DNA of 61,996 nt, filler included, from Dugesia japonica (taxonomy: Eukaryota), in NCBI GenBank assembly GCA_001938525.1. It is 6 parts of 6 records of this genome, joined end to end, with 100 filler letters (N's around TTAATTAATTAA, not from the genome) between each part and the next. Parts side by side here need not be neighbours in the genome. Positions count along the whole stretch, not along the records: positions 30,477 to 41,176 come from MQRL01182084.1; 5 more parts are not named here. The stretch is one strand, 5' to 3'. The translations under genes and the position numbers were made by a program. The notes beneath the pieces were generated by a model that was given only the letters and a program-made list of their open reading frames with translations, did not search any database and was not told the DNA's origin. The stretch's first letter is position 1. Every line of letters begins with the position of its first letter. Positions 2,781 to 56,058 of the stretch are shown here, in pieces.

Positions 2781-2784
2781 GAAT

Positions 2785-20458: not shown

Positions 20459-20558
20459 NNNNNNNNNNNNNNNNNNNNNNNNNNNNNNNNNNNNNNNNNN
20501 NNTTAATTAATTAANNNNNNNNNNNNNNNNNNNNNNNNNNNNNNNNNNNNNNNNNNNN
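20459..20558. other. Artificial contig spacer
   Basis: N run + TTAATTAATTAA (20503-20514) + N run. Confidence 0.95.
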
Positions 20559-21383
20559 TAATGTTTTAATTTAGCATGTGCTCTATCTACTCCAGTAATT
20601 TCTTTTTGAGCTGGAATGCGAGTATATTTATCATATGAAAGTTTTTCTTTATTTAAATCTTCAACTTAAGTTTTATAACGTTTAGCAGATAATTTTATTT
20701 TTTTACTTTTATCATCTGAATGAATTTTAATTACAATATCATCAATTATTTTTGGTTTTGAAACTTGATTAAATTGTTTTAAAACTTTATTATGTTCATC
20801 CCGCTCTTTTTGAAAAGCAACTCGCATTTCATTAATAGCTTTTAAATATGCATTTTTCTCATTATTAATTGAATCAATTAATAAAAGTCTACTTTCATTT
20901 TCTACACATTTTGAAACAATAAAAGTTAATGTTGCTTTAAATAAATTTTTATTATCTTCATCTAAATTAATAACATCTAATCCTATAAATGTTTCATTAA
21001 GAATATCTAAATGGGTTTTAGCAGTATCGCGTGATAGTTCATTATTTAAATATTCTTTTATTTCATCTAAATTTGACTCATCAAATGCGTCAAATTTCTT
21101 TATTGAATTTACTAATGTAAGAAAACTTAATTCACATAAAATCTTTTTCTTATCTCCCATTTTCTATAGAATAAATATGTTTCATTTCAATCTAACAACT
21201 TGGAAAAGTTACATCGTGAAAGTTATAATTATTTTGTATATTTTATGGTTACATTTATTTTAAATATTTAACATTTAACATTTTCATAAAAAATATTTAT
21301 TTTAATATTTTACATTTAAAATTTTCATAAAAAATATATAGGGGTATACCCATATGTCGGTATTACGGTATTATATCACTACT
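20559..21383 (-). mobile_element. Probable Maverick/Polinton terminus with first ORF
   Basis: Minus strand begins AGTAGTGATATAATACCG at 21383 directly against a microsatellite; ORF 20666-21160 reads on past one stop to the contig end. Confidence 0.45.
20666..21160 (-). CDS. Hypothetical intronless coiled-coil-like protein (element-borne, one premature stop)
   Basis: 164-aa ORF starting with ATG, long for this AT content; frame stays open after the stop. Confidence 0.5.
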   Translation of the reverse strand: MGDKKKILCELSFLTLVNSIKKFDAFDESNLDEIKEYLNNELSRDTAKTHLDILNETFIGLDVINLDEDNKNLFKATLTFIVSKCVENESRLLLIDSINNEKNAYLKAINEMRVAFQKERDEHNKVLKQFNQVSKPKIIDDIVIKIHSDDKSKKIKLSAKRYKT

Positions 21384-24712: not shown

Positions 24713-27268
24713 GTCGGCGATTTTTTTAACATGTAATAATAATTAGTAATTTTAAAATATCGGTTTCTTTCAAATGTAATAGTTAATTATTAAGAAAATT
24801 TAACTTATGTATACAGTTATTGCAAAGATATAGATAACAAGCAAATTCTCACAGAAATTCAAGTTGAATTCGTAGAAGGGTTCACAGAAAGACCTATCCT
24901 AAATATTTCAACGATTTCAAGAATAATTGAAAAATTTCACAATGATGGTTTTCATAAGACGCAATTTCTAATTTAATTAACTAAATATTTTGACAACATT
25001 ATTCAACAATAGTAAAGATTATAGAAAAAATAAGGTGTTATTTTATTTAGGAAACAACAAGTCAACTACAGCTATTAAAAATCGAGCATACATGCTCATT
25101 CAGAAAAGAGTCTGCCATGAATTAAAAGATTTATTTCACAACAATTTATAAATTCCACCTTTAAATAATTATCTGCTTCTTTTTAATTTTTGATCTTCTT
25201 TCAAAAAAAATAAATATTAAAGAAACTTTTTTCTTTATTAAAATTAATTTCTAAAAAGTTTAAACTTCAAAATATTAATTTAATTATCTTACATCCCTCA
25301 CCTTCCAGAATTTTTAAGTTTTTCGATGTTCCGAGTCAATCTTTTTCCATCTTTCCTTTCTACTACAAAACGTCTCTCATGAATCATTTTCATCACTACA
25401 TACCGTCCCTAATACCGATCTTGGTTTTTATCTCAAGATTCTACTTCTACCAGGACTTCCTCAACTATTTGAAAATGTCTTCTTGTCTGCGTTTTTTTAT
25501 TCTCATCAATATATGTCACTTGATCTTAACTCGTCTTCTCTTTTGACCACCACCCATCCGTGTACATATGTCTCCCAAATACTAACTCGGCTGGACTTCA
25601 TTGTGTAATTTTCTCATTAAGTGTAAACTCCACTTTTGGTAGGATGTCTGCTTAATAAGTAGTTCCTCTTTCTCGCATCAATGTGTACAACAGATTCATA
25701 ATTGCCCAAAATTGTCGTCCGATTTGACCGTTATTCTAATGATGATATGGACTCGACACTTGCCACGTAATCTTTACTTTGTCTGAGAACTTTTTCATCA
25801 TTTTTCTTTCAAAGACCCTCCCGCAATCAGAACGTATCATTCTCGGACATTGAAACTTCAGAATCCAGTGCTTCCAAATACAATCTCAAATCGTACCTTC
25901 ATCCTGTCTACTTAAACTCAATAATACTACAAACTTTGTACATTGATCGATCATGCTTAGGATGTATTTCTCCCTATTCTTCGTCTCCTTAAATGAGCCA
26001 CAAATATATATAAACATCACTTCAAACGGAGCGTATCTGTCTGATTCTTTAGTTACTTCGTGTCTTGTACTTGTCGAAATTTTGGATTCTTGACAGAAAA
26101 TAACTCCTTATAATATTTCTAATTCTTGATCTTAACTGTCTTCCTTCGTATCTTGAGCAGATATAGTCCTCCAATTTCTCTATGCCTACCTGACATAATG
26201 ATTTATGAATCTCCATAATCTTCTGCGCAATTATCTCATCTCAATTATCTTCTCCAAATTTTCTCCGACATTCATTTTCCGCGAAAATCAATATTCAACT
26301 CGTTTATTCCTTCAGTTTTTCCTAGTCTTCAACTTTCCGTTCTTTGTCTTCTCATGTATCAATTGGCATTGCACACATTTATCACACTTCAATCTACTTT
26401 GTGCATCTGGATTGCCGTGGTTCTTACCTTTCCTGAATTCCAATTTCATGTCCAAACTACTAAGGATATTAGTCTAGGTTGTGAACTGCGCTGTGATTGG
26501 CTTTTTGTATGTAAAATGAACGTGATCGCTTTGTGATACGTTTTTAAAATAAAACATTGATCATATAAATACTGTTTAAAGTTTAAACAAAAGTAATATA
26601 CTGCCAGGAGTTACTTACGAGTTATGCAGTATCCTTGTTTGTGAGTAGACATTGCATGAGACCTGTACACTATTGNTCTTTCATTTCTGTCTTTATCNCT
26701 CTGCAACAGCACCGCACCAATCGTTCCGAAGCTAACATCGGTGTCTAGAATAAACTCTTCGTGTAGATTCAGATATTCTAAAATTGGTGAAGAAATTAAA
26801 ACTTTCTTCATTTCTTTGAACTCCTCTGATGCATTCCTCCATTACAGTTCAACATATTCGATCTAACATTTCGCATACATTTCGCATTTGCATAAATGTT
26901 CCGATATCATCGTGTCTTCTGTAGATATCCGACATAAGACAATCCATAATACTATCAGTATTAACAGCTACATCATATTAGAAACCGAGGATACATGCTC
27001 ATTCAGAAAAGAGTCCGTCATGATTTAAAAGATTTATTTCATAACAATTTAAAAAATTCCACCTTTAAATAATTATCTGCTTCTTTTTAATTTTCGATCT
27101 TCTGCCAAACAATCTGAATATTAAAACAACTTCTTTCTTTATTAAAATTATTTTCAACATCTTACATTCAAGCTGTAAAAACTTTCTTAATAATTAAATA
27201 TTTCATTTGAAAGAAACCAATAAAATTACTAATTATTAATTAAAATTACATGTTAAAAAATCGCCCTG
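24713..27268 (+). mobile_element. Tc1/mariner-like TIR element interrupted by a Gypsy remnant
   Basis: ~90-bp inverted repeats (ggcgattttttaacatgtaat...ggtttctttcaaatg at 24716; reverse complement ending cgccctg-TA at 27268); HTH-like ERPILNISTISRIIEKFHNDG near 24890. Confidence 0.65.
25060..27166 (-). mobile_element. Internally deleted Gypsy element with two diverged LTRs
   Basis: Direct repeats ~25066-25293 and ~26964-27166 both end CTTACA; PPT at 25294-25306; RNase H FILDTDVSFGTIGAVL and integrase PFEVMF...SSPYHH remnants; no gag or RT core visible. Confidence 0.8.
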
Positions 27269-28879: not shown

Positions 28880-29425
28880 AGCTAAGTCTTAAAAAAAACT
28901 GCGCTCCAACATCACGAGAGAAGACTGCAATCAATTGTATTGAACCTGGTCTCATTGATCATATGATGAAGAAAGATAAGATGATTGGTTTTAATTACTT
29001 TTTGTGTAGGTATCTGTGATAAATGTTTTTTTTCTTTGTTGTTGAGGCCAATTCCTTTGAGAGCTTTTTGATTTGTCGGGTTCCAAGATTCAATACTTGT
29101 GATACTTGGTCCCAAGATCCTTTCTAATTTGTTTGTATTTGTTTCTGTTGTCCAATCTCAATTTTTTTAACCACTCCAAAAAATCATATGGCTTTTTGAC
29201 ATCCAAAATGCTGATCTTTGCATTTCTATTGCTAGTCATGAAAAGATGTTGTCTCAGCTTGGTTTTGAGACCTTGAGGATAACAATCATATTGTACATCA
29301 AAGTGTCACTATCTTTGATGGATGCAGTGGTTTCAAGAATTCTTTTGTTTGTTTTTTTTATAAGTCTGTATCTCAGCATGTGTACCACATTATCTGCAAT
29401 GTGTTGGCATTTTCTTTTTATGAGT
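28880..29425 (-). mobile_element. Non-LTR retrotransposon 3' fragment (restriction-like endonuclease)
   Basis: ISILDVKKPYD...SWNPTNQKALKGIGL, resembling RLE-clade C-termini. Confidence 0.5.
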
Positions 29426-29439
29426 CTGTAAGGGTTGTA

Positions 29440-30125
29440 GTTAGTTCATTGAAATAAAAAACTAATTCACTAAAAATTTTGTTCTTATAGCACTGCCTAG
29501 AGAAGACAAGAAAACAATAAGAAAATGTATTTTTGAAAAATGGGTGTTGAGATTTGGATATTCAAGTGAGATAAAACTAGATTGTGAAAAAGCCTTTGAA
29601 TCCAGAGATATTCGAGTGTTTGAGCAGAAGATAGATATTAAACTTTGCTTGTCGAGTACTCATCATTACAATGCAAATAAACAAATTGAAGGACAGTTTA
29701 TGACAACTTGAGATTTAATTAATCTTAATTATTAATATTAATATTAATAAATGAGAGAAAGAAAACAGATCAGGCAGATATTTTATCCGAAACAGAATTT
29801 ANNATGAATTCAACCAAGCCGAAGACGACTGGAAAGAGCCCGGCTAAGATAGTATATGGAAACAAAATTAGCAGAGAAAAGTGGTACAAGTCAGAAGTTT
29901 TGGAGACAACTAAAGAAAACAAATCAGACGTGACTACTAATAGGAAATTCAAAGGAGGAGATTATGTCATCATCAATGTAGAATTACGGAATGAAAGCCA
30001 AGACAGATTTGAAGATTCTTGAATAATTGAGAAAATCCATTAAAGATGATAAGCTGTAAAAGGAGAAAATGAAAAGTGATTGAAGAGAAATGTCGAAAAC
30101 AAAAAAAGTTTTTTAAGAAGGCTGA
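29440..30125 (+). mobile_element. Gypsy integrase remnant
   Basis: WVLRFGYSSEIKLDCEKAFES...SSTHHYNANKQIE...NSTKPKTTGKSPAKIVYG. Confidence 0.75.
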
Positions 30126-30376: not shown

Positions 30377-30476
30377 NNNNNNNNNNNNNNNNNNNNNNNN
30401 NNNNNNNNNNNNNNNNNNNNTTAATTAATTAANNNNNNNNNNNNNNNNNNNNNNNNNNNNNNNNNNNNNNNNNNNN
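30377..30476. other. Artificial contig spacer
   Basis: N run + TTAATTAATTAA (30421-30432) + N run. Confidence 0.95.
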
Positions 30477-30870
30477 AATACATACTAACTCTGTAATATT
30501 ATTTGCTTAGGTACCATGTATATTTACATAACAGTCGTTTAATATACAATTTTGTGTGTATTATTTACATAGCAACCATGTATTATACGTTTTATGAGTG
30601 TTTTAATACATAGTAACCTTGTAATATATTTGTTACATAGTAAACATGTATTATAAGATTTATTAGTGTATAATTTACAAAACAACCGTTTAATATATAG
30701 TATTTTGCGTGTATTATTTGCATAGTAACCCTGTATTATATGGTTTATAAGTATATTATTTACATATTAACTGTGTACTATCTGGTTTATGAATGCATTA
30801 TTTGCATAGTTGACTTAAAGTATTTAAATAAGTAAGGTGTAATATAGGATTTGAGTGTGTAACATTCTTA
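30477..30870. repeat. Diverged ~40-bp tandem repeat (tattatttacatagtaaccatgtattata...)
   Basis: The same unit recurs at 33870-33985, 34645-34685 and, inverted, at 40070-40120. Confidence 0.8.
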
Positions 30871-32036
30871 TATATAACTTATAAGTAATAATTTACATTG
30901 TGTGTGTTTCACAAATATCAAATTTCTAAGTAAATTAATTTAAAAGACAATTCAATAAAAACCCATTTATTATTACTTAAAGCAAACAAAAAAAAACAAA
31001 AACAACAACAATATACATAAAAATCATTAAGCTTTTCCAACTTATCCAATAAAAAAATCTCCTGTTGTTGTATTTGAAAAATCTACCGATGGATCAATGG
31101 AATCGAGATCAACTGGATCATTAGGTAATCCTTTAATANNNNNNNNNNNNNNNNNNNNNNNNNNNNNNNNNNNNNNATCTGTACTATCCGATATCTTATA
31201 AGATTGCATTAGACATTGAATTACAGATACATCAGTTTCTATTTCACTATTTAAATGAATTTTATTCTATTGATATTTTGTAAAATATTATTTAAGCAGT
31301 GTTCAAATTTTTTTAACAACTTCAGTAAATACTTAATAAAAAAGTTTAGTAAAAGATTTTGTAAACAACTTGGAGTAATTATTTGAGTAAAAATTTGATT
31401 TGATGGCTAATTCGGATAAAATACTGAGATGGGTCAACAATGACCATCAGTAATTACAAAGAAATTGAGTAAATCATATCATGGAATGTACAAGGTCAAA
31501 GAAATCAAAATTGACTTGTGTTTTATGTGGCGTGAAGGACATCAAATAATCGTCAAAGAAATTAGTCGAGTAAAACGTGAAGTAGATATTCAGAAGGTCA
31601 GAGTAATATCAAACTGATTTTTGTTTCTCTCTCCATCAATAATATCGAGTGAACATCAACTATATGAAATAAATTCGAGTAAATCGGTTGCAAGTGTCTT
31701 GGAAGTCAAAGAAATCATAAACTGATTTCCAAACTCTTGTAACAGTAGTATTACGAATAAACATCAGGAGATCAACAAGACAAAGTAAGTTACAGATAAT
31801 TATAATATTAACAATGAAGTAAATGTTACAAACGTAGAGATGCGAAGAAACATGATGAAATTAAAGAGAAAATTAAGTGTTATTCGAGGAATCAAAATAA
31901 AAGTCAACGATAATAAAAGGATAATGATTGCTGGAATTCAAATAAATAGATCAGCAAAGAATATCAGGAGTAAAATTAAAGAAATAAAATCAAAACAAGA
32001 ACCTAATTAATAGAAGCACGCGCGATTTTAATGGAG

Positions 32037-32486
32037 ATAAACGAGGAGGAGGAGCGGAGATCTTGGAAATAATTTTTTTGTAGTTTTAAAGATTTGGTTG
32101 TGGTTGGACAAAATTTTGCTCTATATATTGTCTTAAGGACTTATGAGTTTGGATGGATGGGTTTCGCTACAAATGTAGTGGCACACGGGCACAGTCGTAT
32201 GAGTTATCGTGGGTTGTTTTTAGGAAGGTTGTAGGTTTGTAAAAGGTTGATGGAATTTGTTGGTTAATGAGTTGTTGGAAAGGTGATGTAAGGGGGAAGA
32301 TGGTAATTGTTGAATGTGCTTTGATTTTCTATTTAAAATGCTAGAATTTGATTGGTTCGTTTTGTAAGTAGTATAAGTGTGTTTAAAAACATTTTCGTGC
32401 GGTGGAGGTTAGTATGTGTAGAAAAAGAATTAATTATCAGATTTTATAGGATTTATTTGAAATTTTTCTGTGGTTCTGACGTCATA
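32037..32486. repeat. Left arm of long inverted repeat
   Basis: Reverse complement of 40129-40573 with substitutions and small indels. Confidence 0.9.
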
Positions 32487-32809
32487 ATTTTTTGAACTCT
32501 TTATTTTGGTTAAAAATGCTGTATTTTGCTTAAATTGATGAATTTAATGAAAGTAATTGTATTTTTAAGTATTTGATGTATTTTTGGTTATTTTTTCAGT
32601 AATTTTGAACAATGAAGGGTTGTTTATTAATATTTTTGAATATGAAAGAGGGGAGTCTTGATATTTTTGATAACATTTTTGGCGGGAAATTCAAAAAAAT
32701 ATTTTTTGGAGGGAAATTTCAAAAAATATATTTTGGTTGGAAATTTTTCATTTAAATGGGGGGAAATCTTTTTAATATAAATAAATTAAATTTAATTTAA
32801 TTTAATTAG

Positions 32810-33110
32810 TTTATTTATGTAAGAAATGTCGTAGTCTTGATTTTTTGCATAAGATGGGAAGTCTCGATTTTTTTGAGGATATTATTACAAGATATCGGAC
32901 AGTCTTGATATTTTGTAAGATATTAATACAAGATATTGGACTGGCTTGGTATTTTACATGGTATGGGCAGTCTATATATTTGTGCATGGTATGGGTAGTC
33001 TTGATATTTTGCATGGTATGAGCAGTTTCGAAATTTTGAATGGAGAGCCTCTATATTTAGCATTGGATGTGACAGACTTGATATTTTGCAAGGTATGAGG
33101 CATATATATT
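32810..33110. repeat. ~29-bp minisatellite (gtcttgatattttgcatggtatgggca)
   Basis: About ten diverged units. Confidence 0.8.
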
Positions 33111-33479
33111 GCATTCATTTAAAAAAATCAAAATAGCGGCTATGTTGAATTATAAACACTTATTTCTAGTCAGAAATTTATTAAAAGTTCTCAGACTTGT
33201 GATTTTCAGTGTAAGTGTGTTGCATCCGTGTTGCAACTGAGTCGCATACTTATTGCATTTATTAATAAAAATTCCCAGGCACGTGATTTTCAGTGTATGT
33301 GTGTTGCAGCTGTTAAGCTTCTGAGTTGCATTTATGAAAATATATTTATCAAAGAACTTAAAAGAGATGAGTCTTTGTGATATTTGCATGATACAATATT
33401 CAAATAAAAAATTTTTTCCAAAATGATAAAAACATAGACCTTTTTCATAAAAAAAACATTAACTAGATAATTTTCAATA

Positions 33480-33735
33480 AAAACATTAGTGGTGCAATTT
33501 TAAATAGAAAATCTCATTAGCGATCTAATTTTTATTAAAAAGTATCATTAGTGTTGCAATTCTAAATAACAAATCTCATAAGCCATGCAACCTTTAATAA
33601 AAGGTATCATTAGTATTGTAATTATTAATAAAAAGTCTCATTAGTGTTGTAATCTTTAATAAAAGGTATCATCAATGTTGCAATATTTTATTAAAAAGTA
33701 TAATTAGCGAAGCAATGTCTAATAAAAAACATATT
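33480..33735. repeat. ~33-bp minisatellite (aaaaggtatcattagtgttgcaattttaataa)
   Basis: About eight diverged units. Confidence 0.8.
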
Positions 33736-34260
33736 AGTTGAGAACATATCTTAGAACAAAATGATAAAAACATAGGAATTTTGCATAAAAAGCATAAATT
33801 CATGGAACCTGTAAGACATATTTACCTAATATGACTATATAAAAAACGTATAAAAAATATTTTCATGATTGTATAGGGTTTATAAGTATATTATTTGCAT
33901 AGTTACCTTGTATTACTATTTACATATCAACCATGTATTATATGTTATATGAGTATATTATTTACATATCAATCGTGTAATAAGAGGTCACCATGCAAAG
34001 TGTATGCCTAATTGATGCGTGCGTCATGCACAATGCATGTTCGCACCATGTTTATGGGTAATTTAGATAACAAATTATATCATTTTAAACAAATTACAGC
34101 CATTCATATAAATTAAAATTAATAATAACCATTCATTTTCTTTAAAACATTTAATGACCAATAAAAACTAACAAATAACGAGTATGTATGTATCGCAGCA
34201 AGTATATAAACATAGCTTTTGTAAAATAAGTCACTTTTACATTTCAAAGTTGAAAACAAA

Positions 34261-34509
34261 ATGAACCAAATTGAAAGGGGAATTAAACAAATTACAGATG
34301 AAATTACCAGTGGATCCCTTGACGAAATTCAATTCATAAGCAGGATCGACAATGGTCTATTAAGAAAACATGATTATGTTGAACTCATTGTTCGTTCAAT
34401 ATTCATGGAGTAAATTAAGGAAGAAGTAAAGAAACAAAAAAGAAATAAATTTATTGATGGTATTTTATTGACATCTGTTGTGATATTTTATTTGTTTGGT
34501 CGAAATTAA
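34261..34509 (+). pseudogene. Small element-borne tail-anchored protein gene with one premature stop
   Basis: CCAAT and TATA upstream; 83 codons with TAA at 34411; basic patch followed by hydrophobic C-terminus; AATAAA downstream. Confidence 0.55.
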
Positions 34510-34849
34510 TGTAATTATTATTGTTTAGTTGTTTAATAAATAGATTTGAATAATAATTTTGTTTTTTTTCTTGCATTATTTATATAAAAAACTTNTAAGT
34601 AATAGTAATAAGTTATTATAATAGTTTCTTTTAACTACAATTGGTTTATGAGTACATTATTTACATAATAATCACGTAGTATTGTAAATTCATGCTATGT
34701 TCACAAAATTAAATAAATAATATAAAATAATAAAGTACTTTAGTTTCTTAGTATTACTAAAACAGAAAAAATGAAGACATCTTGATAATAAAACACATAT
34801 TGTTTTTATAAAACAAATACATGCAAATAAATATTTCATGTTTAATGTT

Positions 34850-35045
34850 GATTCTTTTATTGTAAACCACTATATAGTGTTCTCTACATAAATTTGTTGT
34901 ATGAGTATTGACGATTATTGCATTGTTTACTGAAATAATATAATTTAAGTAACATTGATGTCCTCCGTTCAATCTAAATAGAATTAAACAATAAATTAAA
35001 CAATAACTCTTACTTTATTACAATTATTTCAAGAATACATAGCAT
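34850..35045 (-). pseudogene. Truncated adenovirus-type (adenain-like) Polinton protease
   Basis: ATG lies 3 nt after the MCP stop; AIIVNTHTTNLCREHYIVVY resembles the IVNT...PGEHW catalytic-His motif; 40-nt intron 34974-35013; no Cys motif visible downstream. Confidence 0.6.
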
Positions 35046-35048
35046 TGT

Positions 35049-36287
35049 TTACACNAATACTGTTCCGTTTACTTTAGCCTGAATTTCTTTTTCAAATACT
35101 CCATAAATTATACCATATGCCGATGTTTTTAAAGCTTTGGCAAACTTGATATCCAATCTCAAATTTCCTTGTTGAGCTAATTGACTCTGATTTATATCAA
35201 AATCTGGAGTAAGAATAAATGTCAAAAAATGATAATTATCCTTAAAATCTCGAAGTGTTATTCCACAATTCATATTCTTATCCAAATATCCCATATTTCG
35301 TACAATAGATTGCATATATGTTGTGGCATAATTATCGTTTTGTAAAATCCTGAGTATATATTTCTCGATAATTAGTGTTTTTTGTCAAGGAAAAAGAAAT
35401 AGTATCTAGATTTTGAAATGTTGAACTCAAGCTTTTATAACTACCATTATATTGTTCACCGCTTTGAAATGTAACCAAATTAAAGCTAGGTAATCGACGA
35501 TCACCAAAGATTTGTTCCTTATAAAACGATGAACTATCTTTAATAATTGCAAATGTAATGACTTCCTTGATTCTTATTGAATAAACAGCATTTTGTGTTT
35601 TTAGTCCCATTTGATGAGCAACTAGTACTGAGGGTTCAACGCGTACACGTCTAACCATTAATTTTGCATCTAGTAATACATATTTAAGTACATTGGCTGC
35701 AGATTCCAAACAATTGTTAGCATCTGTTTGCTTCAATAGATTATGAACATTGACACTAGGAATAAGGTATTTTGGTTGATCCATGAAATCAAGTTGCAAT
35801 GAACCACATAGTGATATTTGTTTTGATTTCGCAATAGACTTTTTTCTATCTGCTTCTGATTCATATTCCAATGCTGAAAAATATATATTCTTACTATCAC
35901 CATTATAATTTATTATAGTTTCAATAATTGCTTTGTGAAGATAAGATCCATTNNNNCCTTCAATTTTGAAATTATTAAACGAAAGAATTACATCCTTAAA
36001 AAGTGTATGCAACATATAGTTACTAGGAATCAAATCATCCTTATCAGTCAAATCTTTGCCATCTTTATCAACTACCTTTACTTTAATATACAATAAAGTA
36101 TAATTCAAATCCAAAATTCTGTTTGAGATCCATTTATAAAAATCTCTACATCGCTTTGTGATTCAGAAAATTAATTCATAGGGAAATACCTTCGAATTTA
36201 CCATATTCAATTACAGTTTGTGGAGATGGTCGATAAAAAATACTTAATTCAGTTTTACCGCAAATCTTTTTTCACATATTGTTCCAT
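35049..36287 (-). pseudogene. Polinton major capsid protein (double jelly-roll), frameshifted
   Basis: CGKTELSIF.RPSPQTVIEYG, DLNYTLLYIKVKVV, NYMLHTLFKDV, QPKYLIPSVNV, GNLRLDIKFAKAL. Confidence 0.85.
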
Positions 36288-36706
36288 GTCCTCTCATTCG
36301 TTTGTTTATAAGTGATACATGAGATTTCTTTCGTTTTCTACTATTTTGTGGTGTTATGTCTTGATTTGATAGCATATTAGTTATTTCAGATGGTATTTTA
36401 TTAGTTAAACTTTGCTGTAGTATACCTACTACTTTTGGAATCATGCTGGTAACTCAACTAGTTACTGAAAAAACTACATTTCCTAGCTCAGACAATGATT
36501 AGATTTCAATATGGATAGTATTTTCCATCATTAGTTAGTATATTCTGAGCTGTTTTCATACCAAAAGAACCAATACGTCTAAGAATAGGCAAACCAAATC
36601 TCTCTTTTGTTTGTAACCACCCAGATTCATACTGTTTTCCAAGAAAGTAAGGTAATTCGACACCTGCTTGACTAGTACTATACAATGATACAATATTAGG
36701 GTTCAT
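36244..36706 (-). pseudogene. Polinton core-like basic protein between the capsid genes
   Basis: YSTSQAGVELPYFLGKQYESGWLQ (QxGxG-type motif) and basic tail RKRKK...KRMRGHG; frameshifted. Confidence 0.65.
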
Positions 36707-37813
36707 TATTAATTTTTCTAAAATCTAACGTTAAATGTGGTTTTGAATCTTCAGCAAAAATGACTAGTTTTCCACTATCATCACGTATATTAATTTCTAT
36801 ATTTTTTATATATGACGAAGAAATAAGTAAATACATCGAATGATCAACAATTATTTTTATTACGTCATCATTATCATGTTCCTCTATCCATACTGCTTTC
36901 AATAANNNNNNNNNNNNNNNNNNNNNNNNNNNNNNNNNNNNNNNNNNNNNNNNNNNNNNNNNNNNNNNNNNNNNNNNNNNNNNNNNNNTCTAGGTTTTTT
37001 ATTACTTTTATATAGTAGTTGTTTATCATTAAATTGTATTTGAGTATATTGCGATTCTTTTAATCCTAATGTTTGTGTTAAGATTTTATCGAATTTAACA
37101 CTTTTAGTTCTATATGCTAATGTAAATTCAAGTACTTCATCTTGCTTTAATGAAAAAGTTTTAAATAACTGTGGAAGTTGTTTCTTAAAATAGTCATTTA
37201 ATTAATTTAAATCCTTTATATACAGTTCAGATTTGAATTGAAAAGAATGTTTAGTTACAATCGGATAATAATATTTAATTTTTATTTTTTCAATAGATTC
37301 GTCGTTTTTAAAGTGTTGAAAGCCAAGAAAAAATGTTTTATCTCCAAAATTTTTACTAGCATCAAAAATTAAGTTAATATCCTTACTTTCAAATACGTCA
37401 CTAAAATATGAAAATCTCTTTATAGTTTCCAGATTTTCAAATAATAAAATGTGGTATGTAATATCACAAGTAAAGACTAAAACATTTTCTTTCGATAATT
37501 CTATAACTGTTTCCTTGTTATTTTTATAATTGTTTTGAGAATTAACAGTTAGAAGAACTTTCATTTCTTTATTGTTAACATCAAGTATTAGTTCCTTCTC
37601 AATTATTGTAAAAAATTCATAATCAATCCTAGATTGACTGTAAATTGGCATGGCTGAATATACAAAGGTGAAATCCATGAAGGCTACTTCCTAACTACCA
37701 TCCATGTAAATTGGCTTTTGAAGCTCAACAATGTAATTACTAGCAACATTATTTGGATGAATTAGGGAACTACTATTATTACGTAAAAGTGTATAGAAAT
37801 TATTTGATTTCAT
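36696..37813 (-). pseudogene. Polinton minor capsid protein (penton)
   Basis: N-terminus FYTLLRNNSSSLIHPNNVASNYIVELQKPIYMDGS*EVAF and C-terminus YIKNIEINIRDDSGKLVIF...LTLDFRK; stops and a gap. Confidence 0.8.
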
Positions 37814-38039
37814 CTGAATTTTTGTCTTGTTATTTTATTTGTGTTGCTACTATTCAAATTGGTTTTTGTATTTATATCATTTTATTTAATATTGTTTATT
37901 CTTTCAGATACTTTTGATTAAAATAGAATAGATCTTGTAAATCTAATGAATACAACGATAGAAGACAAAAATATACTTGTAAAATTTATTAATCATTTCA
38001 ATTAGATACATTTACCATAAATCATCAATACCATAGCCT

Positions 38040-38279
38040 TTATATGCTCTTGTTGGAAATCTTTCCAACTTTGGCTTGTTCAAATTGTATAGTAGATGGA
38101 CAGATAACAACATTTTCGTCTGTCTTTTCGATTTTTTGGGCTGCTTTTATCAATTTTTCTATGCTTCAAAACTTGCCAGGTTTTTTGGATCCGTCTATAT
38201 TGTCTTCATTTTTATCTCCAATACAACAATCTGATGCAAACTTCAAGTCAAAATTAGGTAATGATTGCAATCCACCCAT
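38040..38279 (-). pseudogene. Small protein with N-myristoylation motif upstream of the penton (one premature stop)
   Basis: MGGLQSLPNFDLKFASDCCIG...KF*SIEK...NKSI*, 80 codons. Confidence 0.5.
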
Positions 38280-38785
38280 TGTTCATTATTTATTGTAATT
38301 TTTAAATATGAATATTTTAAGTATTAAAAATATGAAAATAATGGAAGAACAATTTGTAAACGAAGTTTGATTTTTTATTAATTTTATAAATAAATTTAAT
38401 TTAGGAATGCTTATAGACATAATGGAGAAACGAAGGAGGCTTGATGAAGAAAAAATCCCATGCTTCCGGACTGTATTGTCAATGAGTTCATGGAAGCTGG
38501 ATTTTGTGAACCTGATTAGATCGGGTGCGCAGAGTTTAACCTCTATGCCACCACGCAGAACCATCTGGATGATTTTAATTGATATAATGCCTATTTTTGT
38601 TATCTTAAAAAAAATAAATGTATTATTCTTAAGTCTTTGTTTTTTATTTATTTAGTTTTATTTATTAGGGTTTATTTATTTATTTAGATTTTTTTATTTA
38701 GTTTTTAAACAAAAATAAAGTTAACAAGATTTTCTTTCATAAAAATTTATTTCAATAAAAAAAAATAACATCAAGTAAACCAATT

Positions 38786-39180
38786 TTAAATCGTCTTTGC
38801 AATATTTTTAAGTTTCCAAATGACTACTACTGAATTAATGGACTTCTTAAAACCTTTTATTTCCACTTGAATTATATTTTGACTATCGTATTCATATTGG
38901 TTCTCGTCCTTTTCTTTAAAATCTATATAAATTACCTCATTGACCTCAATTTGTCTGCTTAATCTTGCAAACATGGCTTCCAGTACATTTCTATCCTTCT
39001 TATGAATTCCAGATAGAAGCAAACTAAATTTGGGTTTTTTTTTCTAAAATAATAAGTTATAATGAAATTAAAAAAATTACTTTGTAGTCATAGATAATTG
39101 GGGTCTTCAAAAAGAACAACTTGTAATTATGGAAATCTGTAATTTTACCACGTTCCACAGTTATTATTGATACGTTTTCT
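38786..39180 (-). CDS. Spliced accessory ORF of the Maverick-like element (start codon unclear)
   Basis: A 37-nt GT-AG intron at 39044-39080 joins ENVSIITVERG...YDYK in frame to KKKPKFSLLLSGIHKK... Confidence 0.45.
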
Positions 39181-39381
39181 TTATAGAGTTAATTTTCTTG
39201 CGTTTTTGTGTTGTAAAAGTGATTAATGTTATGTAAAACTTTGATTTTATACTAGTTGCGATACATATATACTCGTTATTTATGAGTTCATATTGATAAT
39301 TATTTACTATAATTGATATGATTGGCTATTGGGTTTATATAAATAGGACTGTTTGTTTTAAAAAACTTCACTTTTTACAAA

Positions 39382-39860
39382 ATGAATACATGTGAAATTT
39401 TGTTTTTAGAAAACACTGTCCAAGTAGATTACGAGCTTGAAAATGACATTAACCATGAAGAAATAGAAAATATAATGGAAGCTAATGAGAAAGTAAAAAT
39501 CAATATTAATGACGAAATAAATGAAGAAACAACTATTGAAGATGACAAAGATGGAAGATACATGTCAAGATAATGGTAACGATAGTGGTTATTTTGAAAT
39601 TGAAGTAAAAAATTATGAAAATTATTATCTTAAAAGTTTAATTTATTATTATTTAATTTAATTATTTTTTAGAATTAGCGTAGGAGATATTACATGACGA
39701 TTTCCCAGAATTAATTCATGAATATATGCTGTTGATTATGATTGAATATTTTGAGCATTTATTTCAGAAAAAAGCAATAGATATGTTTCAAGTTATGGAC
39801 AATTTCATCATAGAACTTCATGCAGGTTTCCATTTCAATGAAAACAAGAACCATTAGGAA
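39382..39860 (+). pseudogene. Acidic accessory gene with probable intron 39605-39672
   Basis: ATTGG and TATATAAA upstream, ATG at 39382, E/D-rich, disrupted frames, AATAAA downstream. Confidence 0.4.
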
Positions 39861-40045
39861 GTCTTAAAAGAAAAATTTTTGAAGAAGACTGAATATCATA
39901 AAAATTTTTTAATTAATAAATGTTTTATTGGATAATTGTTTTCTTTTTTTTAAAAGTAAATAAATACAATTTTTTTATAATACTAAGTAAACAAAAACAA
40001 AATAATATTTTAAATAAATTAATTTATGATAACTAATTTCATTAA

Positions 40046-40573
40046 CATACATTTTGAACGGTGACCTCTTATTACACGGTTGATATGTAAAGAATATACT
40101 CATAAAACATATAATACATCATGAAAATATGACGTCATAACCACTCGACAGAAACATTTAAAATAATGTTATAAAATCTGATAATTAATTCTTTTTCTAC
40201 ACATACTAACCTCCACCGCATGAAAATGTTTTTAAACACTCTTATACTACTTACAAAATGAAACAATCAAATTCAAGCATTTAAAATAGAAAATCAAAGC
40301 ACATTCAACAATCACCATCTTTCCCATTACATTACCTTTCCAACAACTTATTAACCAACAAATTCCATCAACCACTTACAAACCTACAGCTTCCCTAAAA
40401 ACAACCCACGATAACTGGGTGTGCCACTACATTTGTAGCGAAAACCATCCATCCAAACTTATAAGTCTCTAAGACAATATATAGCGCAAAACTTTGTCCA
40501 ACCACAACCAAATCTTTAAAACTACAAAGAAATTATTACCAAGATCTCCAGCTCCTCCTTCTCCTCGTTTTAT
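40046..40573. repeat. Right arm of long inverted repeat
   Basis: 40129-40573 pairs with 32037-32486; 40046-40130 pairs with ~33860-34007. Confidence 0.9.
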
Positions 40574-41176
40574 TCACTCTTACAAACATACAAGCTCAAC
40601 TTGACCTACTTTTTAAAAACCACACAAACCAAACACACAAAAAATTTAAAAATACACACACACTTTCAGGATAAAAAAACTGATCCGATAAAAAAAAATT
40701 GATCCGATTAAAAAGTTTTTGAATCCAAAAATCTTACAAAAAAAACGATCACAAAATCATGTAAAAAAACGCAAGTCAAGCGTAATATGTTTATGAGCCT
40801 CTCTCCCGGAGGAGGAGAGACGATAACTCATTAAAAAAATTGCTGCCCAAATTAAATTGTTCCCGTGTGCCACTATCTACCTACTGCCTGAAATATGGTT
40901 AAACAGACAATACCTGGAGTAATGGAGTAGTCTGTCACATGGTTAGACAAAGAAGCTATACTTATCAAGAAATGTAGGATGAGTATCGGGATAGTCAACA
41001 CAGGTAGACTCAAGCGAGTTACTATCGAAATCTTTATCAACTTTAGAACGGAGAAATGGACGCTGGTGTTACAAAGGGTTCTATGATTACTGTGGTGTCC
41101 AACGGATTGTTAATTTACTCAGGTGTACAGTCAGACATAGGAATTTTTCGCTTGTTGTGGGTATACATGAGATTTT

Positions 41177-41276
41177 NNNNNNNNNNNNNNNNNNNNNNNN
41201 NNNNNNNNNNNNNNNNNNNNTTAATTAATTAANNNNNNNNNNNNNNNNNNNNNNNNNNNNNNNNNNNNNNNNNNNN
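41177..41276. other. Artificial contig spacer
   Basis: N run + TTAATTAATTAA (41221-41232) + N run. Confidence 0.95.
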
Positions 41277-43251
41277 TTTAGTTATTTGCAATTTATTATC
41301 AAAATGGAAATTATTATTAATTAACCCCTTTACTTCATTTTAATTCTTTTTAATAACCGATGCAGAATATTTTTGAATAAAATTTTTTATGCCTCATTAT
41401 ACTTTTACAAAAGAAAAGACAAATAAGATACATGCTTACCATCGATTTGGCATACAAATGAGGTCTGCTAAAAAGGTTTCCCATAAATCACCGCATTTTA
41501 GGTGCCTTATTTTTGTCTTTTTCGTTTGTTTTCTCGGGACTTACTCAACAGATCTTATTTTGCTTGAGATCAGTACCTTCTGAATACACTCTTCATGTTT
41601 TCCAACGAACCTCTTGTTTGCATTTATTTTCCCACCAACCACCTACCTTATTTGTAACATCAATCCCTTCAGGAAGTTGACTGATCATGTTCACATGCTT
41701 GTTTTCGTCTTTTAGCTTTAGTTAAAAATTAAAATTTTTTAGCATCATGCACAAACAAACACCACTAGGATTTTAATGCATTAATTTTAGAAGCTATATG
41801 CAAAATCCTAATTTATGAAATTTTTTAAAATTTGTAGAATAATATTAAGCATCACGCAAAAACAAACATAATCACTAGGTTTTGAATATATTAATTGAAA
41901 ATTTTAATAAGAATAATATAAAAATCACAATTTTAAAATTTGTTGAATAATATTGAGCATCACACACAAACATACACCACTGGGCTATTCATATAATTAA
42001 AATTTAACAAATAAGTTATGAACAAGTTTCTTAAAAGTAAATATAATCACTTTTTATAAAACTGGCAATTATCATGCCAGTTGGACCAAGTATTTTTAAT
42101 TATACTTGGCAGTTAGATTGCCCAAAATGAGCAAAGGTTATTCTACTTTCTCACACAATGGTAATGAGTTCACGTCAATATCGATTCTGAGAGTAAAACT
42201 TAAACCATTCGTTAATATAATGAAACAACATTATTTTAAGAAATTGATTCAAATTAATTTATCGTAAAAGGCATAATAACTGTTCTAATGCCTAGAAAGA
42301 CCCAAATTGTGTGCATACATAATGAAGGCTATTGAGGGCTAATTCGAAAAAGCGAAATTATCATTTTAACAAGTTTTAGCAGTTTTCAAAAAATTGTGAA
42401 ATGTATACCCTACCACCATAATCATGGAAAATTACAGATGAATCATGCAATAAAGTTAATTCAATTGTAACTATAAAAAATTAATATCGCTGTAAAAATA
42501 AAGCTGGTTTTAATATAATTTAAAAGCCAGGTCAGTGCTGTCCACCACAATATTACCGCATTGTTTTAGTGTCTATTATGAGAAAACTAATAGATATTAA
42601 TGAAATTTAAAGCTAGCGAAAAGTTAATTCTATTTGAAAATTAATTTAGTTTATTAAGATCTTTTATGTCGATGTGAAAATGATTAGAAAATGTTTATCA
42701 TTGCCACGTTATCTGCAACCATTTTTAATCGATCCTCTATTATTATTTAGCCACATTTTCATTTGATCGTCACAAATATTGCATAATGGTGTTCACATTA
42801 GTTTTTCGTTTTCAATTAGAAATTTTACTAACTTTTCTCTATCTTCGACTAAATTTATTATTTTCTAAAAAAAAATTAATTATAATTGGATTTCAATGAT
42901 ATCAATAAGAAATTCAATAATTCAATTATATTATTTATCTATTAATTACATTAACTTTACTCAATTCTCACTAATTTTGCGGGTCAATAATTGGAAGGCA
43001 TAATATAATTATATCCCGAAATATTACGAAAATATTACTTTAGCTAAATTACTATGTGGTAACATTTTCAATCATAAATGGATTGCATAGCTCCATAAAT
43101 TTAACCAGATGAATCGTTTGTAAAAAATTATCAGTGAATATAATAATATATACATATATAATAAAAACATTAAAAATTCCTTCTCAACTAAATACTTTAT
43201 TTCTTCTAATAAACGATAATAAATCAGTAATTATTCAGAAATATTATTCGA

Positions 43252-46397: not shown

Positions 46398-46901
46398 AGG
46401 ACCTCTGTCTAAGCAGAAAAATAAATATAATTTCTTAAAAAAACCCAACTGCTAACTGGTTATTAAATTGTGGATCCAATCTCAACTGACAATTCAAAGG
46501 TATTCATTAAGATAGTACTAAGTCGTTAAATAAACCGTATTTATAAAGGCAGAATTCGTTATCAGAGGAAAAAATTTGAAATTTAGTAGGAAAAAATTTT
46601 TAGTCTACGAGGACAATCAGCGCTATCAGTTATTAACCTGTTGCAGAAATTCCGTGAATCAATTATAAAAGTAAAAGATTCTTTTTTGTTATGTTGATAA
46701 TTAGTAAAATTTTATGTATAACCTATTATAATAGTTGTAATAGTTGAAATAATAGTTGCAATTAGCAAAACTAATTGCTTTAGCGATATCTGTGTAGTTA
46801 AGGGCAGCATGAAAATAGATATTATGGTTTTGCTTTTGCTCCCTCTTTTCTGTCTTCATGCAATATAATCTAAATTTATTAACTCTATTTTGTTCCTAGG
46901 T

Positions 46902-47168
46902 ATGGATTCTATCTGGATACGCGTCGTTGATAGGAGAACCCGTAGATTAGTACTACGCCGTTATCACAACCCGGATAATCGGGATGCTGGTATCTTGACA
47001 GACCGGTCAAACTTACCACCGATCGAATCAATCGTGGGCCGCATTACTGATTTCGGAGAACGACAGCGCTACCAGGCCTGGACAGGTCCGGATCGTACCA
47101 TCGCGACCCCATTTTCCTATCAACCTGCCACTCCCCCCGGCTCCGGCGATACAAGCATTCATCGCTAA
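46902..47168 (+). CDS. Cassette 1: hypothetical Arg/Pro-rich protein
   Basis: Acceptor ttcctag ends at 46899, ATG at 46902, AATAAA near 47274. Confidence 0.5.
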   Translation: MDSIWIRVVDRRTRRLVLRRYHNPDNRDAGILTDRSNLPPIESIVGRITDFGERQRYQAWTGPDRTIATPFSYQPATPPGSGDTSIHR

Positions 47169-47573
47169 CCTCCTCTGGGGAGTCCGGGATCCGAACGGGA
47201 TAACAGATATCGAAAACACTGCCCCTAACACCGACACTACTATTAATCAACCCTAATTTGTTGTTTATTTAGAAATAAATAGGTGTGTTAGCTTCGACTA
47301 TTTTTAACTGTTCTTGTGAATCAACGTACTAAGTAAATAATTCAATAATGATTTCTAATAAAAATTTCCTTGTAAAATTAAAATACTACTTATAACTAAA
47401 GAGTTCTTCTCGATTTTTATTTAATACAATGGGTAACCATATCTGTTCATTGCTTCTGGTATTAGCCCATGTTGAGTCAAGTGTAATGCTTTAACTGTGC
47501 TTTTATTTCAGTGCATTCGTCCTTAAATAGATCCCAGGCACCAAATAAGAAATTACGTGAGGATAGTGAGGAT

Positions 47574-47870
47574 ATGGCACTCACCTGGGATCTTTATAGA
47601 TTAGCCAAAAGAAGGTGGGAGGCAGAGACTGCCGTGGCAGAAGCCAAGGTAAAACGCTATAAGCGGAAATGCCTAAACTATAAAACAGAGATGGATGCCA
47701 CCCAGAATCAAGAGAGGGTGTGGAAATCGCAAGTTGAAACCTTCGCCACGATGATTAAGTCGTAACAAGAGCGTGAGAACCATCTCGTCGAGAATATAGC
47801 GAAGTTACTTGCTACGATTTCACTAGCCCCACTCTTGATTGACAAGGGCACTCAGACGTCTCGCTCCTGA
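47574..47870 (+). pseudogene. Cassette 2: coiled-coil protein with C-terminal DKGTQT (premature TAA at 47763)
   Basis: Acceptor tatttcag ends at 47511, ATG at 47574, frame continues to TGA at 47868, AATAAA near 47900. Confidence 0.5.
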
Positions 47871-48033
47871 GTTACTCTATCGTATATGTAGTTGCTAATA
47901 ATAAAATATTTTTGTTGTATCGTTTCTAATTCGTTACTTTAACGCTTAATTTGTTTGGTGACGATTTAACTATGCTTTTCATTCAGAGCCACGAATTACT
48001 TTTCCCAGCAGTATCAGGAGGTGCCATGGAATC

Positions 48034-48369
48034 ATGCGCCACTTGTTGATCGATCGACACCTAAAACGTAAAACCGATAGGGCACTTATGAAGCACCTCG
48101 ACCAACGGGATCAACTGATAAAAAAATTAGATCTCATCGTAAAAAAACAGAACGACCTTGCGATTCAAACCAAAGCTCTGGAAGCCGAGAATAAACAATT
48201 GTTGTTAAGAAAAATTGAATTCTTAAAACAATACATTGCTGATCTGTCCCGCAGAATAGTACACCTGTCGGTAACTCAATGGGATGACGATGACGACATC
48301 GCAGTCTTTAATTTCGTGGTGACAGACGGAGACCAATGGTTAGATCCTGAAGCACTGGACTTAATTTAA
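48034..48369 (+). CDS. Cassette 3: coiled-coil protein with acidic/aromatic tail
   Basis: Acceptor ttcattcag ends at 47987, ATG at 48034, 111 aa, AATAAA at 48379. Confidence 0.55.
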   Translation: MRHLLIDRHLKRKTDRALMKHLDQRDQLIKKLDLIVKKQNDLAIQTKALEAENKQLLLRKIEFLKQYIADLSRRIVHLSVTQWDDDDDIAVFNFVVTDGDQWLDPEALDLI

Positions 48370-51762: not shown

Positions 51763-51862
51763 NNNNNNNNNNNNNNNNNNNNNNNNNNNNNNNNNNNNNN
51801 NNNNNNTTAATTAATTAANNNNNNNNNNNNNNNNNNNNNNNNNNNNNNNNNNNNNNNNNNNN
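51763..51862. other. Artificial contig spacer
   Basis: N run + TTAATTAATTAA (51807-51818) + N run. Confidence 0.95.
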
Positions 51863-51964: not shown

Positions 51965-52810
51965 TGTCAGATGTAGCACACAGAGGCAAAATCAGAGAAA
52001 TCCAAGACTAAATTGTTAAAAGACCATGTAGCAGATCGAAATGTGGGAAATAGATAAAAAGACACTGAAGGGAAAACAACAACTTGACTAACCCTAAATG
52101 AGATGAATACAAAAATATGGGAGATCCACAAATTTTTATGTCACACGGGAACAGAAAAAACCGAGGACTACATATGCACTAGATACACAGGAGACCAATT
52201 GAGAGAAAAAACAAGAAAGTTGGTACGAACATGTATGTAGTTCCAAAAGGTAAAAGTTGACACAACTGGCACGACAGAGGTCACATCTTGGTCTGAAAAG
52301 TACGAACCGTTCGAGGTTATGTTTGTCGATATTGGTGGACCGCTAAAAATAACAAAAGGAAATAAACGGTACATACTGGGTATGATTGACCAGGACGCTA
52401 AATATATCAAATTAATAGCATTGAGCAGACAGGGTGAGAACACAATTTGGGAAAACATTTGGAAACAGTGGATCTTAAAGTTTGGATGTCCTAGAGAGAT
52501 TCGATCAGATTGTGGCAGAGTATTCCAGGCACAAGAAATGAAAGATTTTGCAGAAAAGTTAAGCATCGTGTGGGAGGACAACAGGAAGGATAAGCAAGAG
52601 TCAGGAAACAAAGAAAAGAATAGAAATAAAGACAAAGAGGCAATTTCAGTTAGAACATAACGAGAAAAAGGACAAGATCGATATGATGGACCGTATGAGG
52701 TGGTGGAACTGATCTATGATAGACGGTATGTGTTAAAGGGCCAAGAGGGACAGAAAATAACACGAATCGTGGAGAAACTTAAAAGGGCTCTAAAGTNGGG
52801 GATGTGAGGA
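51965..52810 (+). mobile_element. Gypsy integrase remnant with PPT and LTR start
   Basis: IWEIHKFLCH.GTEK, PFEVMFVDIGGP, WILKFGCPREIRSDCG, RYDGPYEVV; purine tract followed by TGTGAG at 52803. Confidence 0.85.
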
Positions 52811-53995: not shown

Positions 53996-55953
53996 GTTTG
54001 CAAATTTGTCCATACTTTGAGTGGAAGAACAGAATAGGCAAGAAGCATGGTAATGCTATTTAGATGTCAAGTATTTCTCACATCACATGTGACAGACAAA
54101 CCAAAGTGATGCCTAGATTGAAAAACATGATTGAAGACAAGATATATCAACATGGTGTAGGAGGATATTGGTCAGTTGGAGGCAATACAGAAATCAATTC
54201 CAGTAAAAGTTTTTCAAAGAATTTTTCGGCAGAGGTGAGTTGTCAAAAGTTTCATTAAAGAATATACTTAAATAACAGTCTCGATTTCTGGTTCTAAAAT
54301 ATTCTTAATAAAAAGAACACGTAAAAATCACACAAAAATAAAAAGTTGAATATAAAAAATGAAAATTTAGACTAAACTATCATACTATATTTCCTTACTA
54401 TTTTAGTTAATATCAAAAACCCGTTTGAAGCTGCTAACTTACTAGTAAATTTTCCCATTATTTTAAAAATTTTAATTTATTCATCTCGAAACTATTGAGT
54501 CCTGGTCTCGAAAGTATGGCATAAAATCCATATATTAAAATTAGATTTGTAAGGGTGGAGAACTATTTCTTCATTTAAATAGTTCCTTTCATAACTTTCT
54601 CCAAACTTTATAAANNNNNNNNNNNNNNNNNNNNNNNNNNNNNNNNNNNNNNNNNNNNNNNNNNNNNNNNNNNNNNNNNNNNNNNNNNNNNNNNNNNNNN
54701 NNNNNNNNNNNNNNNNNNNNNNNNNNNNNNNNNNNNNNNNNNNNNNNNNNNNNNNNNNNNNNNNNNNNNNNNNNNNNNNNNNNNGAGATATCAAAGAATT
54801 CCGTCACTTCATTATTTTCCAGAATTGTGTTAACCTAAAATAAACATTATAAAATATAGAAATAGAATAAAATAAAAAAAATATTTAATCAATTTTCAGT
54901 AAAAAAATTGTTTTCACCGATCAAACAAGAAGTGTCAAGCATCATTAANNNNNNNNNNNNNNNNNNNNNNNNNNNNNNNNNNNNNNNNNNNNNNNNNNTT
55001 ACCATTTAATCCTTCCACGGGAAAAATTTCAGTCTTTAGATTTCTAAAAATAAACTTTGTTAAATAATTAATAGAAGATTAAATTTAAATGAATTTTATA
55101 AATTTAATCAGGTTTAAATATCATTTTCATAAATCAAACAAGAAGTGTCAAACATCATCTAATTAAATTGATAACAGTATTTTAAAAAGAACATACTTGA
55201 ACACTCCAATTTTTGATTCTTCGTAAAATAAAAATTCATTTCATTTTATAGAAAATGTCATTTAAAATGCTGTCATTTAAAATTTTAACTTTTATTTAAT
55301 TGTATTTATTTAAACAATTTAAAAAGCTTTTTTGCAATTTAAATGACACCATGTTAATTTTAATTTCTGTTTTTCATTTAAAATTTTTAGAAAATACCGA
55401 AAGTTTTCTATAGAATATTTTTTTTCATTAAAATTTTGTTATGTTTACTGAATGATTTTTAATGTTTACTTATTTTTGAAAAATGTGGGTAAGGCAGTAC
55501 TGCAATGAGGTTTTGATTCATCATTTCATTCAAATTTAATGATAATTGGTTCTTGTGGCTCATCATCATCAGTTAATGTTTTTTCTTTTCATAAGTTTTA
55601 CTTATTTNATTACTCTTTATTTTTTCATTTCTTCAAAGTAATTTTGAATTGGTATCGAATGGATAGTTTCAAATATCCACTATCGTGTGCAAATTTATTT
55701 GTAAAAAATGATAAATATGTTTTTCCAGCAGCGTCATTGTCTTTATTATATCCCATTATCAGATTTTCTAATTCTTCATTAAATGGTATAATTATTGAGG
55801 ATATATCCTTTTGTTTTCTTATTAAGAGACATTTTTGATCTTCTCTTTAATATTGAAATAAGTTCTAAAATATCAATTATTATTTTCTGGTAATTGCTAT
55901 TTTTAAAACTTTCATTCATTATTTTTTCAGGAGTATTTTTTGGAAAATGATAT

Positions 55954-56058
55954 TGTTAATGATAAATTACTAAAATAATATTTATTCAAATAAAACAAGT
56001 TCAAATTTTCTTCTTCTAAAATCTGAATATTTAAACACTTCATTTATATTATATCACA
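55954..56058 (-). repeat. 3' LTR (~105 bp)
   Basis: TG...CA direct repeat of 60356-60463. Confidence 0.9.

Follow-up and report, generated by a model that had tools for sequence, protein, structure and literature searches.

A capsid module of Polinton type in Dugesia japonica, probably the remnant of an eroded provirus

Introduction

Is a set of viral capsid genes that lies between inverted repeats, with no replication genes beside it, an element in its own right or what is left of a larger one? The question is raised by a Polinton (Maverick) locus in Dugesia japonica. The locus lies on contig MQRL01182084.1 (10.7 kb, positions 30477-41176), which is flanked by 100-bp linkers (30377-30476 and 41177-41276) within a stretch of DNA of about 62 kb, hereafter the window, that contains 51 runs of N. 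Polintons replicate by protein-primed synthesis from the ends of their terminal inverted repeats (TIRs), insert by means of an rve integrase and can potentially form a virion. This would also have been the original state of the element described here.

An earlier reading of the window (the original prediction) described penton, core, major capsid protein (MCP) and protease genes enclosed by long inverted repeats, with no protein-primed polymerase (pPolB), integrase or packaging ATPase. It offered two explanations, a deletion derivative or the structural segment of a bipartite or satellite element. Our analysis favours the first. The locus is probably a Polinton provirus eroded by kilobase-scale deletions and point mutation, a genomic fossil. 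The analysis covers the single copy of the element in the window.

Results and discussion

Capsid genes in conserved order, all of them broken

The element retains an integrase stub and penton, core, MCP and protease genes in the order of L001 (JANOGQ010000345.1, 1-12666), a near-complete and apparently intact Polinton, and all of these genes are broken. As originally predicted, the four capsid-module genes are collinear on the minus strand. Searches by tblastn with the genes of intact relatives gave E values of 1e-8 for penton, 2e-12 for core, 5e-72 for MCP and, weakly, 0.003 for protease (Table 1). The genes are recognisable, but judged by their sequence none of the four is intact, a point that the prediction did not mention. 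The MCP gene has frame changes near 36180, 36110 and 35340 and a stop near 36170. Penton has stops near 37690 and 37200, and an 83-N assembly gap (36906-36988) lies inside it. The first ~60 codons of core align (36706-36521) and the remainder is interrupted. About 50 codons of the protease align, a weak match in the expected position; its L001 counterpart matches Pfam Peptidase_C5 (E 1e-7). The C-terminal part of core and the protease are interrupted and could not be aligned through.

The MCP is the best characterised of the four. A search with its longest open reading frame (ORF) piece as query recovered 48 homologues out of 448 candidates; most of those of full length have 405-413 aa, and identity reaches 70%. 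A structure model built from 37 of these homologues (pLDDT 87) matched the MCPs of iridovirus, PBCV-1, Sputnik and mavirus in Foldseek, with E values down to 6e-16. On this model the MCP is of the double jelly-roll (DJR) type. The group is compact (405-419 aa) and shares 26% identity with a 441-aa homologue that weakly matches Pfam DJR-like_dom. A sequence search of the PDB with the MCP alignment gave no match. When 30480-41701 was scanned against Pfam in all six frames, stops being treated as X, none of 24 segments matched; the library also missed an intact homologue (P0002), and the scan is therefore uninformative. The core protein is presumably PZ/pVII-like. The penton label rests on a feature-search lead and on position, one gene upstream of MCP (PMC4028283). 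A fold prediction from three penton relatives reached a pLDDT of 32 and gave no confirmation of the fold.

L001 is one of three related loci (L001-L003) found among 68 pattern matches in a scan of GTDB contigs, all three from bacterial metagenome-assembled genome (MAG) records. It takes up a whole contig of its record and is most likely a eukaryotic-virus contig binned into a bacterial MAG. Its order is pPolB (opposite strand), ATPase (Pox_A32), rve and chromodomain integrase, penton, core, MCP, Peptidase_C5 protease and a TBP-like gene, with tandem repeats beyond the last gene. The only Pfam match of its pPolB is Endonuclease_7, in keeping with an endonuclease VII-like insert; the label comes from size, from 42,200 relatives and from sequence motifs that we take to be those of pPolB. 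L002 carries an integrase, two tandem penton-like genes (1520-3907), core and MCP. Nine of the 15 proteins of these two loci match the element at E<0.01 and in the same order (both integrases, all three pentons, both cores, MCP and protease). In L003, an interrupted MCP fragment (699-1534) is fused to opposite-strand sequence, presumably the C-terminus of a bacterial oxidoreductase, and L003 is probably a chimeric contig.

An integrase stub without polymerase or packaging ATPase

The original prediction recognised no integrase. An N-terminal remnant is present, however, with tblastn E values of 4e-9 and 1e-7 and an E of 3e-13 with a two-sequence profile. It is formed by the first ~95 codons; residues 14-103 of the L001 integrase align by tblastn at 38209-37939 with 39-43% identity. 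As in L001 and L002, it lies directly upstream of penton. Its distance to the penton start is 397 bp, compared with 1016-1040 bp in the relatives, so that some 620-640 bp, with the chromodomain and the greater part of the catalytic core, are gone. A stub in the ancestral position and short by this length argues for a deletion derivative.

The other absences that had been predicted, of pPolB and the packaging ATPase, were borne out across the window. A pPolB profile from 60 of 150 homologues, run on all frames of the window, gave a best domain E of 0.075 over 18 residues outside the element, and tblastn with the 150 homologues gave none at E<0.01 in the window. For the packaging ATPase (A32/FtsK-like), a profile from the 120 listed of 1220 homologues reached a best domain E of 0.24-0.87 in the window, and one of 120 tblastn queries gave an E of 0.032, overlying the MCP gene. 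The six remaining L001 genes (pPolB, a 128-aa ORF, ATPase, a 121-aa ORF, the TBP-like gene and a 159-aa ORF) gave no tblastn match at E<0.3 in the window. By its sequence, with neither pPolB nor ATPase, the element is not an autonomous Polinton. Positions 36989-41176, which span the region where integrase core, ATPase and pPolB are missing, are free of N, and these losses are therefore not concealed by gaps.

Some candidates were rejected. Matches to rve at 29466, 25970, 52241 and 56403 lie outside the element and cover the catalytic core only; the one at 56403 is within a long terminal repeat (LTR) retrotransposon that bears reverse transcriptase (RT) and RNase H. An ORF at 38789-39043 had a faint likeness, by eye, to an ATPase C-terminus, which the 120-sequence ATPase profile did not support.

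Asymmetric terminal repeats, open on the left

Self-alignment recovered both pairs of inverted repeats that had been described, 32039-32490 with 40570-40124 (88% blastn identity including gaps, E 2e-166) and 33933-34006 with 40119-40046 (92%). Long TIRs are present, with about 450 and 85 bp common to both arms, and they are asymmetric. The extra ~1.4 kb of minisatellites that had been noted in the left arm corresponds to a 1.37-kb block (32484-33856) without counterpart in the right arm, with periods of 27, 41, 28, 84 and 31 bp between 32676 and 33728. A collinear alignment gives the two arms one layout, except that the right one lacks this block and a further 65 bp (33868-33932). The simplest account would be a single TIR of about 2.3 kb from which both pieces were deleted on the right, the alternative being gain on the left. 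Intact vertebrate Mavericks carry TIRs of 46-1,447 bp as well as flanking accessory regions (PMC8097293).

The element was said to be enclosed by these repeats. The arms are real, but the left side is open. Nothing in 30477-34100 corresponds to the 315 bp at 40571-40885, whose best local alignment there scores 33 where shuffles reach 40, and the hexamer flanking 40885 is not repeated in 30477-34000, so no target-site duplication (TSD) was found there. Judged by its sequence, the element has neither a left terminus nor a TSD.

A Polinton-like terminus had also been placed at 40885. The sequence AGTAGGTAG does run inward from this position and occurs once in the window, but its motif is not canonical. 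The end is AGTAGG-like and is neither (AGT)2 nor (AG)3, and the window holds 71 copies of the pentamer AGTAG when both strands are counted. Published ends of vertebrate Mavericks are (AGT)2, (AG)3 and (AC)3A (PMC8097293). A 14-mer at 40875 and 32176 and a 12-mer at 40831 and 32199 are found nowhere else in the window. Both words belong to the terminal 70 bp and have their only other copies within the left arm, so the terminal segment is probably element DNA, and an element end at 40885 is plausible.

Two stretches to the left of the element were also noted. A block of the element's subterminal repeat (30496-30810) sits 1.2 kb beyond the left arm and may mark the border of another copy or be a fragment that was displaced. 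The stretch 31177-32037 is purine-skewed, with a loose internal repeat and no Pfam match, and was possibly once coding.

Table 1. Features of the Polinton element and of its left flank (window positions)
Feature	Position	Strand	Basis
About 7 units of the element's 42-bp subterminal repeat, outside the left arm	30496..30810	+	74-83% to 33872-33982; beside contig edge
Left TIR outer block, outermost ~315 bp gone	32038..32483	+	Matches reversed 40571-40131, 92-93% in two long ungapped blocks (collinear alignment)
Subterminal minisatellite block, left arm only	32484..33856	+	27-, 41-, 28-, 84-, 31-bp units
Left TIR inner block, 42-bp repeat family	33857..34006	+	33857-33867 = 40130-40120; 33933-34006 = 40119-40046, 92%
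TATA and initiator-like motif (34203-34237), small ORF from ATG 34261 with internal stop	34203..34509	+	No Pfam match
Adenain-like maturation protease remnant, catalytic His region only	34772..34921	-	35% over 49 aa, E 0.003, L001 protease
Double jelly-roll MCP pseudogene	35052..36265	-	70% identity to intact 406-aa homologue
Core protein pseudogene, end approximate	36270..36706	-	43% over 58 aa, E 2e-12, to L001 gene between penton and MCP
Penton (minor capsid) pseudogene	36714..37810	-	Matches the syntenic L001 and L002 genes, E 1e-8 to 1e-6
N-terminal remnant of Polinton retroviral-like (rve) integrase	37930..38209	-	39% over 87 aa, E 4e-9, L001 integrase
Small ORFs, 38286-38564 (or 38407-38655 on +) and 38786-39043	38286..39091	-	No Pfam match at curated cut-off
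Divergent TATA and initiator-like pair	39216..39374	39251-39216 (-), 39336-39374 (+)	Motif scan
Two small ORFs, 39382-39573 (acidic) and 39684-39857	39382..39857	+	No Pfam match at curated cut-off
Right TIR, inner and outer blocks abutting, without the 1.37-kb and 65-bp pieces	40046..40571	-	Collinear arm alignment
Probable outermost right TIR, ending in AGTAGGTAG	40572..40885	-	14-mer and 12-mer in common with left arm only

Capsid-gene decay matches the divergence of the arms

The two arms allow the decay of the capsid genes to be set against a clock. In the outer blocks 32 of 438 aligned positions are mismatched, a divergence of 7.3%, or 3.8% per arm if the arms started out identical at insertion. 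At that level, 8.3% of codons should be changed and stops should arise at 0.64 per 100 codons. Conserved MCP columns were defined as those at least 90% conserved in 35 intact homologues (the two most distant of the 37 being dropped), with leave-one-out scoring. The element is altered at 16 of 131 such columns (12.2%), or 13 of 113 away from the breaks, whereas the same test on the 35 intact homologues gives 0-9.7%, with a median of 3.7%. The observed excess change is ~8.5%, and three stops occur in 798 codons where about five are expected. The decay of the capsid genes is thus at the level that the arms predict, which suggests that these genes were intact and functional at insertion and have decayed neutrally since. 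Selection on the capsid genes would then have lasted until insertion, which is consistent with a virion stage.

The element as a probable Polinton provirus, since eroded

The reading that we consider most probable starts with the insertion of a Polinton that had working capsid genes and identical TIRs of ~2.3 kb. Erosion in place would have followed. Separate internal deletions, presumably after insertion, would have removed pPolB, ATPase and most of the integrase. These would be of the same kind as the deletions that took 1.37 kb of the right arm and the left terminus. Neutral point mutations would then have accumulated to ~3.8% per site. The present copy would be unable to replicate, package or integrate, and inert as a virus. 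The integrase stub in its ancestral position, the kilobase-scale losses from the arms and the fit of capsid decay to arm divergence all favour the deletion derivative that the original prediction had named first. Elsewhere in the window, too, mobile elements are split or partial.

In kind, the element resembles animal Polintons or Mavericks (polintoviruses, 'adintoviruses'), L001 being the closest complete one. Its DJR MCP stands in one run with core, a putative penton and a putative adenain-like protease, immediately after the remnant of an rve integrase, and, like Polintons, it has long TIRs with subterminal tandem repeats and accessory ORFs that flank the core (PMC8097293). Unlike intact Polintons, it lacks pPolB and ATPase, keeps the N-terminal third or less of the integrase, has broken genes and misses one terminus and the TSD. 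Core-gene homology in conserved order, combined with stops, frame changes and large indels, makes it by its sequence a degraded Maverick fossil. Such fossils, which also have partial TIRs and partial gene sets, differ from it in nothing essential (PMC8097293). What sets this one apart is that both arms are preserved enough to date the decay, and that the surviving part is the capsid module. In vertebrates, 96% of 3,511 Maverick loci are degraded (Barreat & Katzourakis 2021, PMC8097293), and partial Polinton copies and TIR remnants are reported in C. elegans (bioRxiv 10.1101/2024.01.15.575659). A decayed Polinton is ordinary, and most endogenous copies look alike. This one belongs to the compact-MCP Polinton group and supplies an animal host for it, the three other loci being from bacterial MAG records.

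Several observations pull the other way. The lost genes are those for replication, packaging and integration, with the four structural genes still in collinear order, and the layout needs a minimum of two or three separate deletions. The L001 MCP is only 42% identical to that of the element, which makes the L001 layout a guide and not an ancestor. The reading is drawn from one copy, that of the window. The integrase stub has three to five breaks in ~95 codons, against six in 798 codons of MCP, penton and the N-terminal part of core (binomial P 0.004-0.12, depending on counting). This hints that the integrase may have died before the capsid genes, in a test that is fragile, as three integrase stops fall in one short stretch and the C-terminal part of core and the protease are uncounted.

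Possible mobilisation in trans

The difference in break density would suit a non-autonomous Polinton that was deleted before insertion, had intact capsid genes, was moved in trans by a helper acting on its TIRs and decayed later. Such a capsid donor would predict both an integrase stub that decays faster than the capsid genes and capsid genes that keep to the TIR clock, the latter implying that they were intact at insertion. There is also a precedent for mobilisation in trans, since insect polintons that lack polB and are flanked by TIRs are apparently still mobile (Pannagram preprint, bioRxiv 10.1101/2025.02.07.637071). Like these, the D. japonica element kept its TIRs and lost polB. The insect elements form groups of highly similar copies, carry LINE or LTR cargo and have a packaging gene beside the loss, according to the available text of that preprint. 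The present element, in contrast, is decayed, carries no recognisable transposable-element cargo and, besides polB, is without ATPase and the greater part of the integrase. The asymmetric losses from the arms show that this locus sheds kilobases in place, the break-density test has the weaknesses just given, and the left terminus and TSD are absent from the single copy seen, although the terminus could have been lost after insertion. In its available text, a survey of the anole found no non-autonomous Polintons (PMC3014272). We regard trans mobilisation as unlikely, though it is the most serious competitor. Equally doubtful is its extension, in which the element would be a capsid-donor Polinton, comparable to a defective genome or a proto-bipartite stage, that first lost pPolB, ATPase and integrase function and kept working capsid, core and protease genes and its accessory promoters. 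Should the deleted layout be found again between different flanks, Polintons would be complementable in trans while supplying capsids, which would bear on how polB-less polintons move.

Improbable alternatives: assembly artefact and dedicated segment

Related Polinton copies might instead have been collapsed or mis-joined in a short-read draft, with some frame changes being sequencing errors. The element sits on a 10.7-kb contig between linkers in a window rich in N-runs, the orphan repeat block at 30496-30810 lies at the contig edge, and trouble of short reads with such elements has been discussed (PMC11131425). We consider this improbable. No N falls where integrase, ATPase and pPolB are missing, a 7.3% difference between the arms is enough for them to be assembled separately, and homopolymer errors account neither for stops that lie in frame nor for the surplus of changes at conserved positions.

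Least of all do we credit the second suggestion of the original prediction. On that view, the element would be the dedicated structural part of a bipartite or satellite Polinton, and pPolB and integrase would lie on a partner segment with the same repeats. Four virion-module genes do lie between long inverted repeats without pPolB or ATPase, flanked by promoter-like motifs and small ORFs, but a truncated integrase, which such a segment should not carry, is still attached to penton, no capsid gene is intact, one terminus is missing, L001 and L002 show a monopartite layout over the length of their contigs, and the packaging ATPase, which is normally retained along with MCP and protease or lost with them (PMC4028283), is absent. 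No partner element with pPolB or integrase and the same TIRs was found in the 62-kb window. The literature searched, whose coverage lay outside subscription journals, Repbase and supplements, showed no such animal element among the papers listed, and the available text of PMC8502044, PMC12220804, PMC11131425 and 10.1101/2023.08.22.554363 describes no capsid-only segment.

Promoter-like motifs and small ORFs of the element

A TATA motif followed by TCACTTT, which we take to be an initiator, occurs at only three places in the 62 kb; all of them belong to the element, and a small ORF follows each. None of 500 shuffles reached three, for a motif that was picked after viewing the sequence. The three look like host Pol II-type promoters for accessory genes. 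The region 39212-39330 is a 75% inverted copy of 34124-34241. A short intron may connect the ORF at 38786-39043 with an ATG at 39091, an ambiguous case in which two acceptors give 31 or 82 codons. The accessory ORF 38789-39043 found no homologue, its best Atlas score (0.78) being below lead level.

Surroundings in the window

The window joins separate contigs of ~10 kb by identical linkers (44 N, 12 nt, 44 N) at 11013-11112, 20459-20558, 30377-30476, 41177-41276 and 51763-51862. GC content is mostly 15-35%. Split or partial LTR retrotransposons with RT, RNase H-like and rve matches lie at 55900-59900 (-), 52000-52800 (+), 29400-30050 (+) and 25000-27150, and 25063-25251 and 26965-27155 are 88% direct repeats 1.9 kb apart. 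An RRM-domain exon at 6281-6823 (-), which we presume to resemble ESRP/fusilli, a ribosomal protein S4 fragment at 16784-17158 (+) and a Tc1/Tc3-type transposase at 4616-5182 (-) were also identified. Together with the split LTR elements and the low GC content, these suggest an AT-rich animal host. A sigma-70 promoter scan, a model irrelevant to a eukaryote, was at chance (13 found, 13.4 expected). ORFs of 99, 135 and 165 codons at 46869-48369 (+) and 20666-21163 (-) have no Pfam match at the curated cut-off. The 47-48 kb block has the highest GC content in the window (41%) and may be another unrecognised element.

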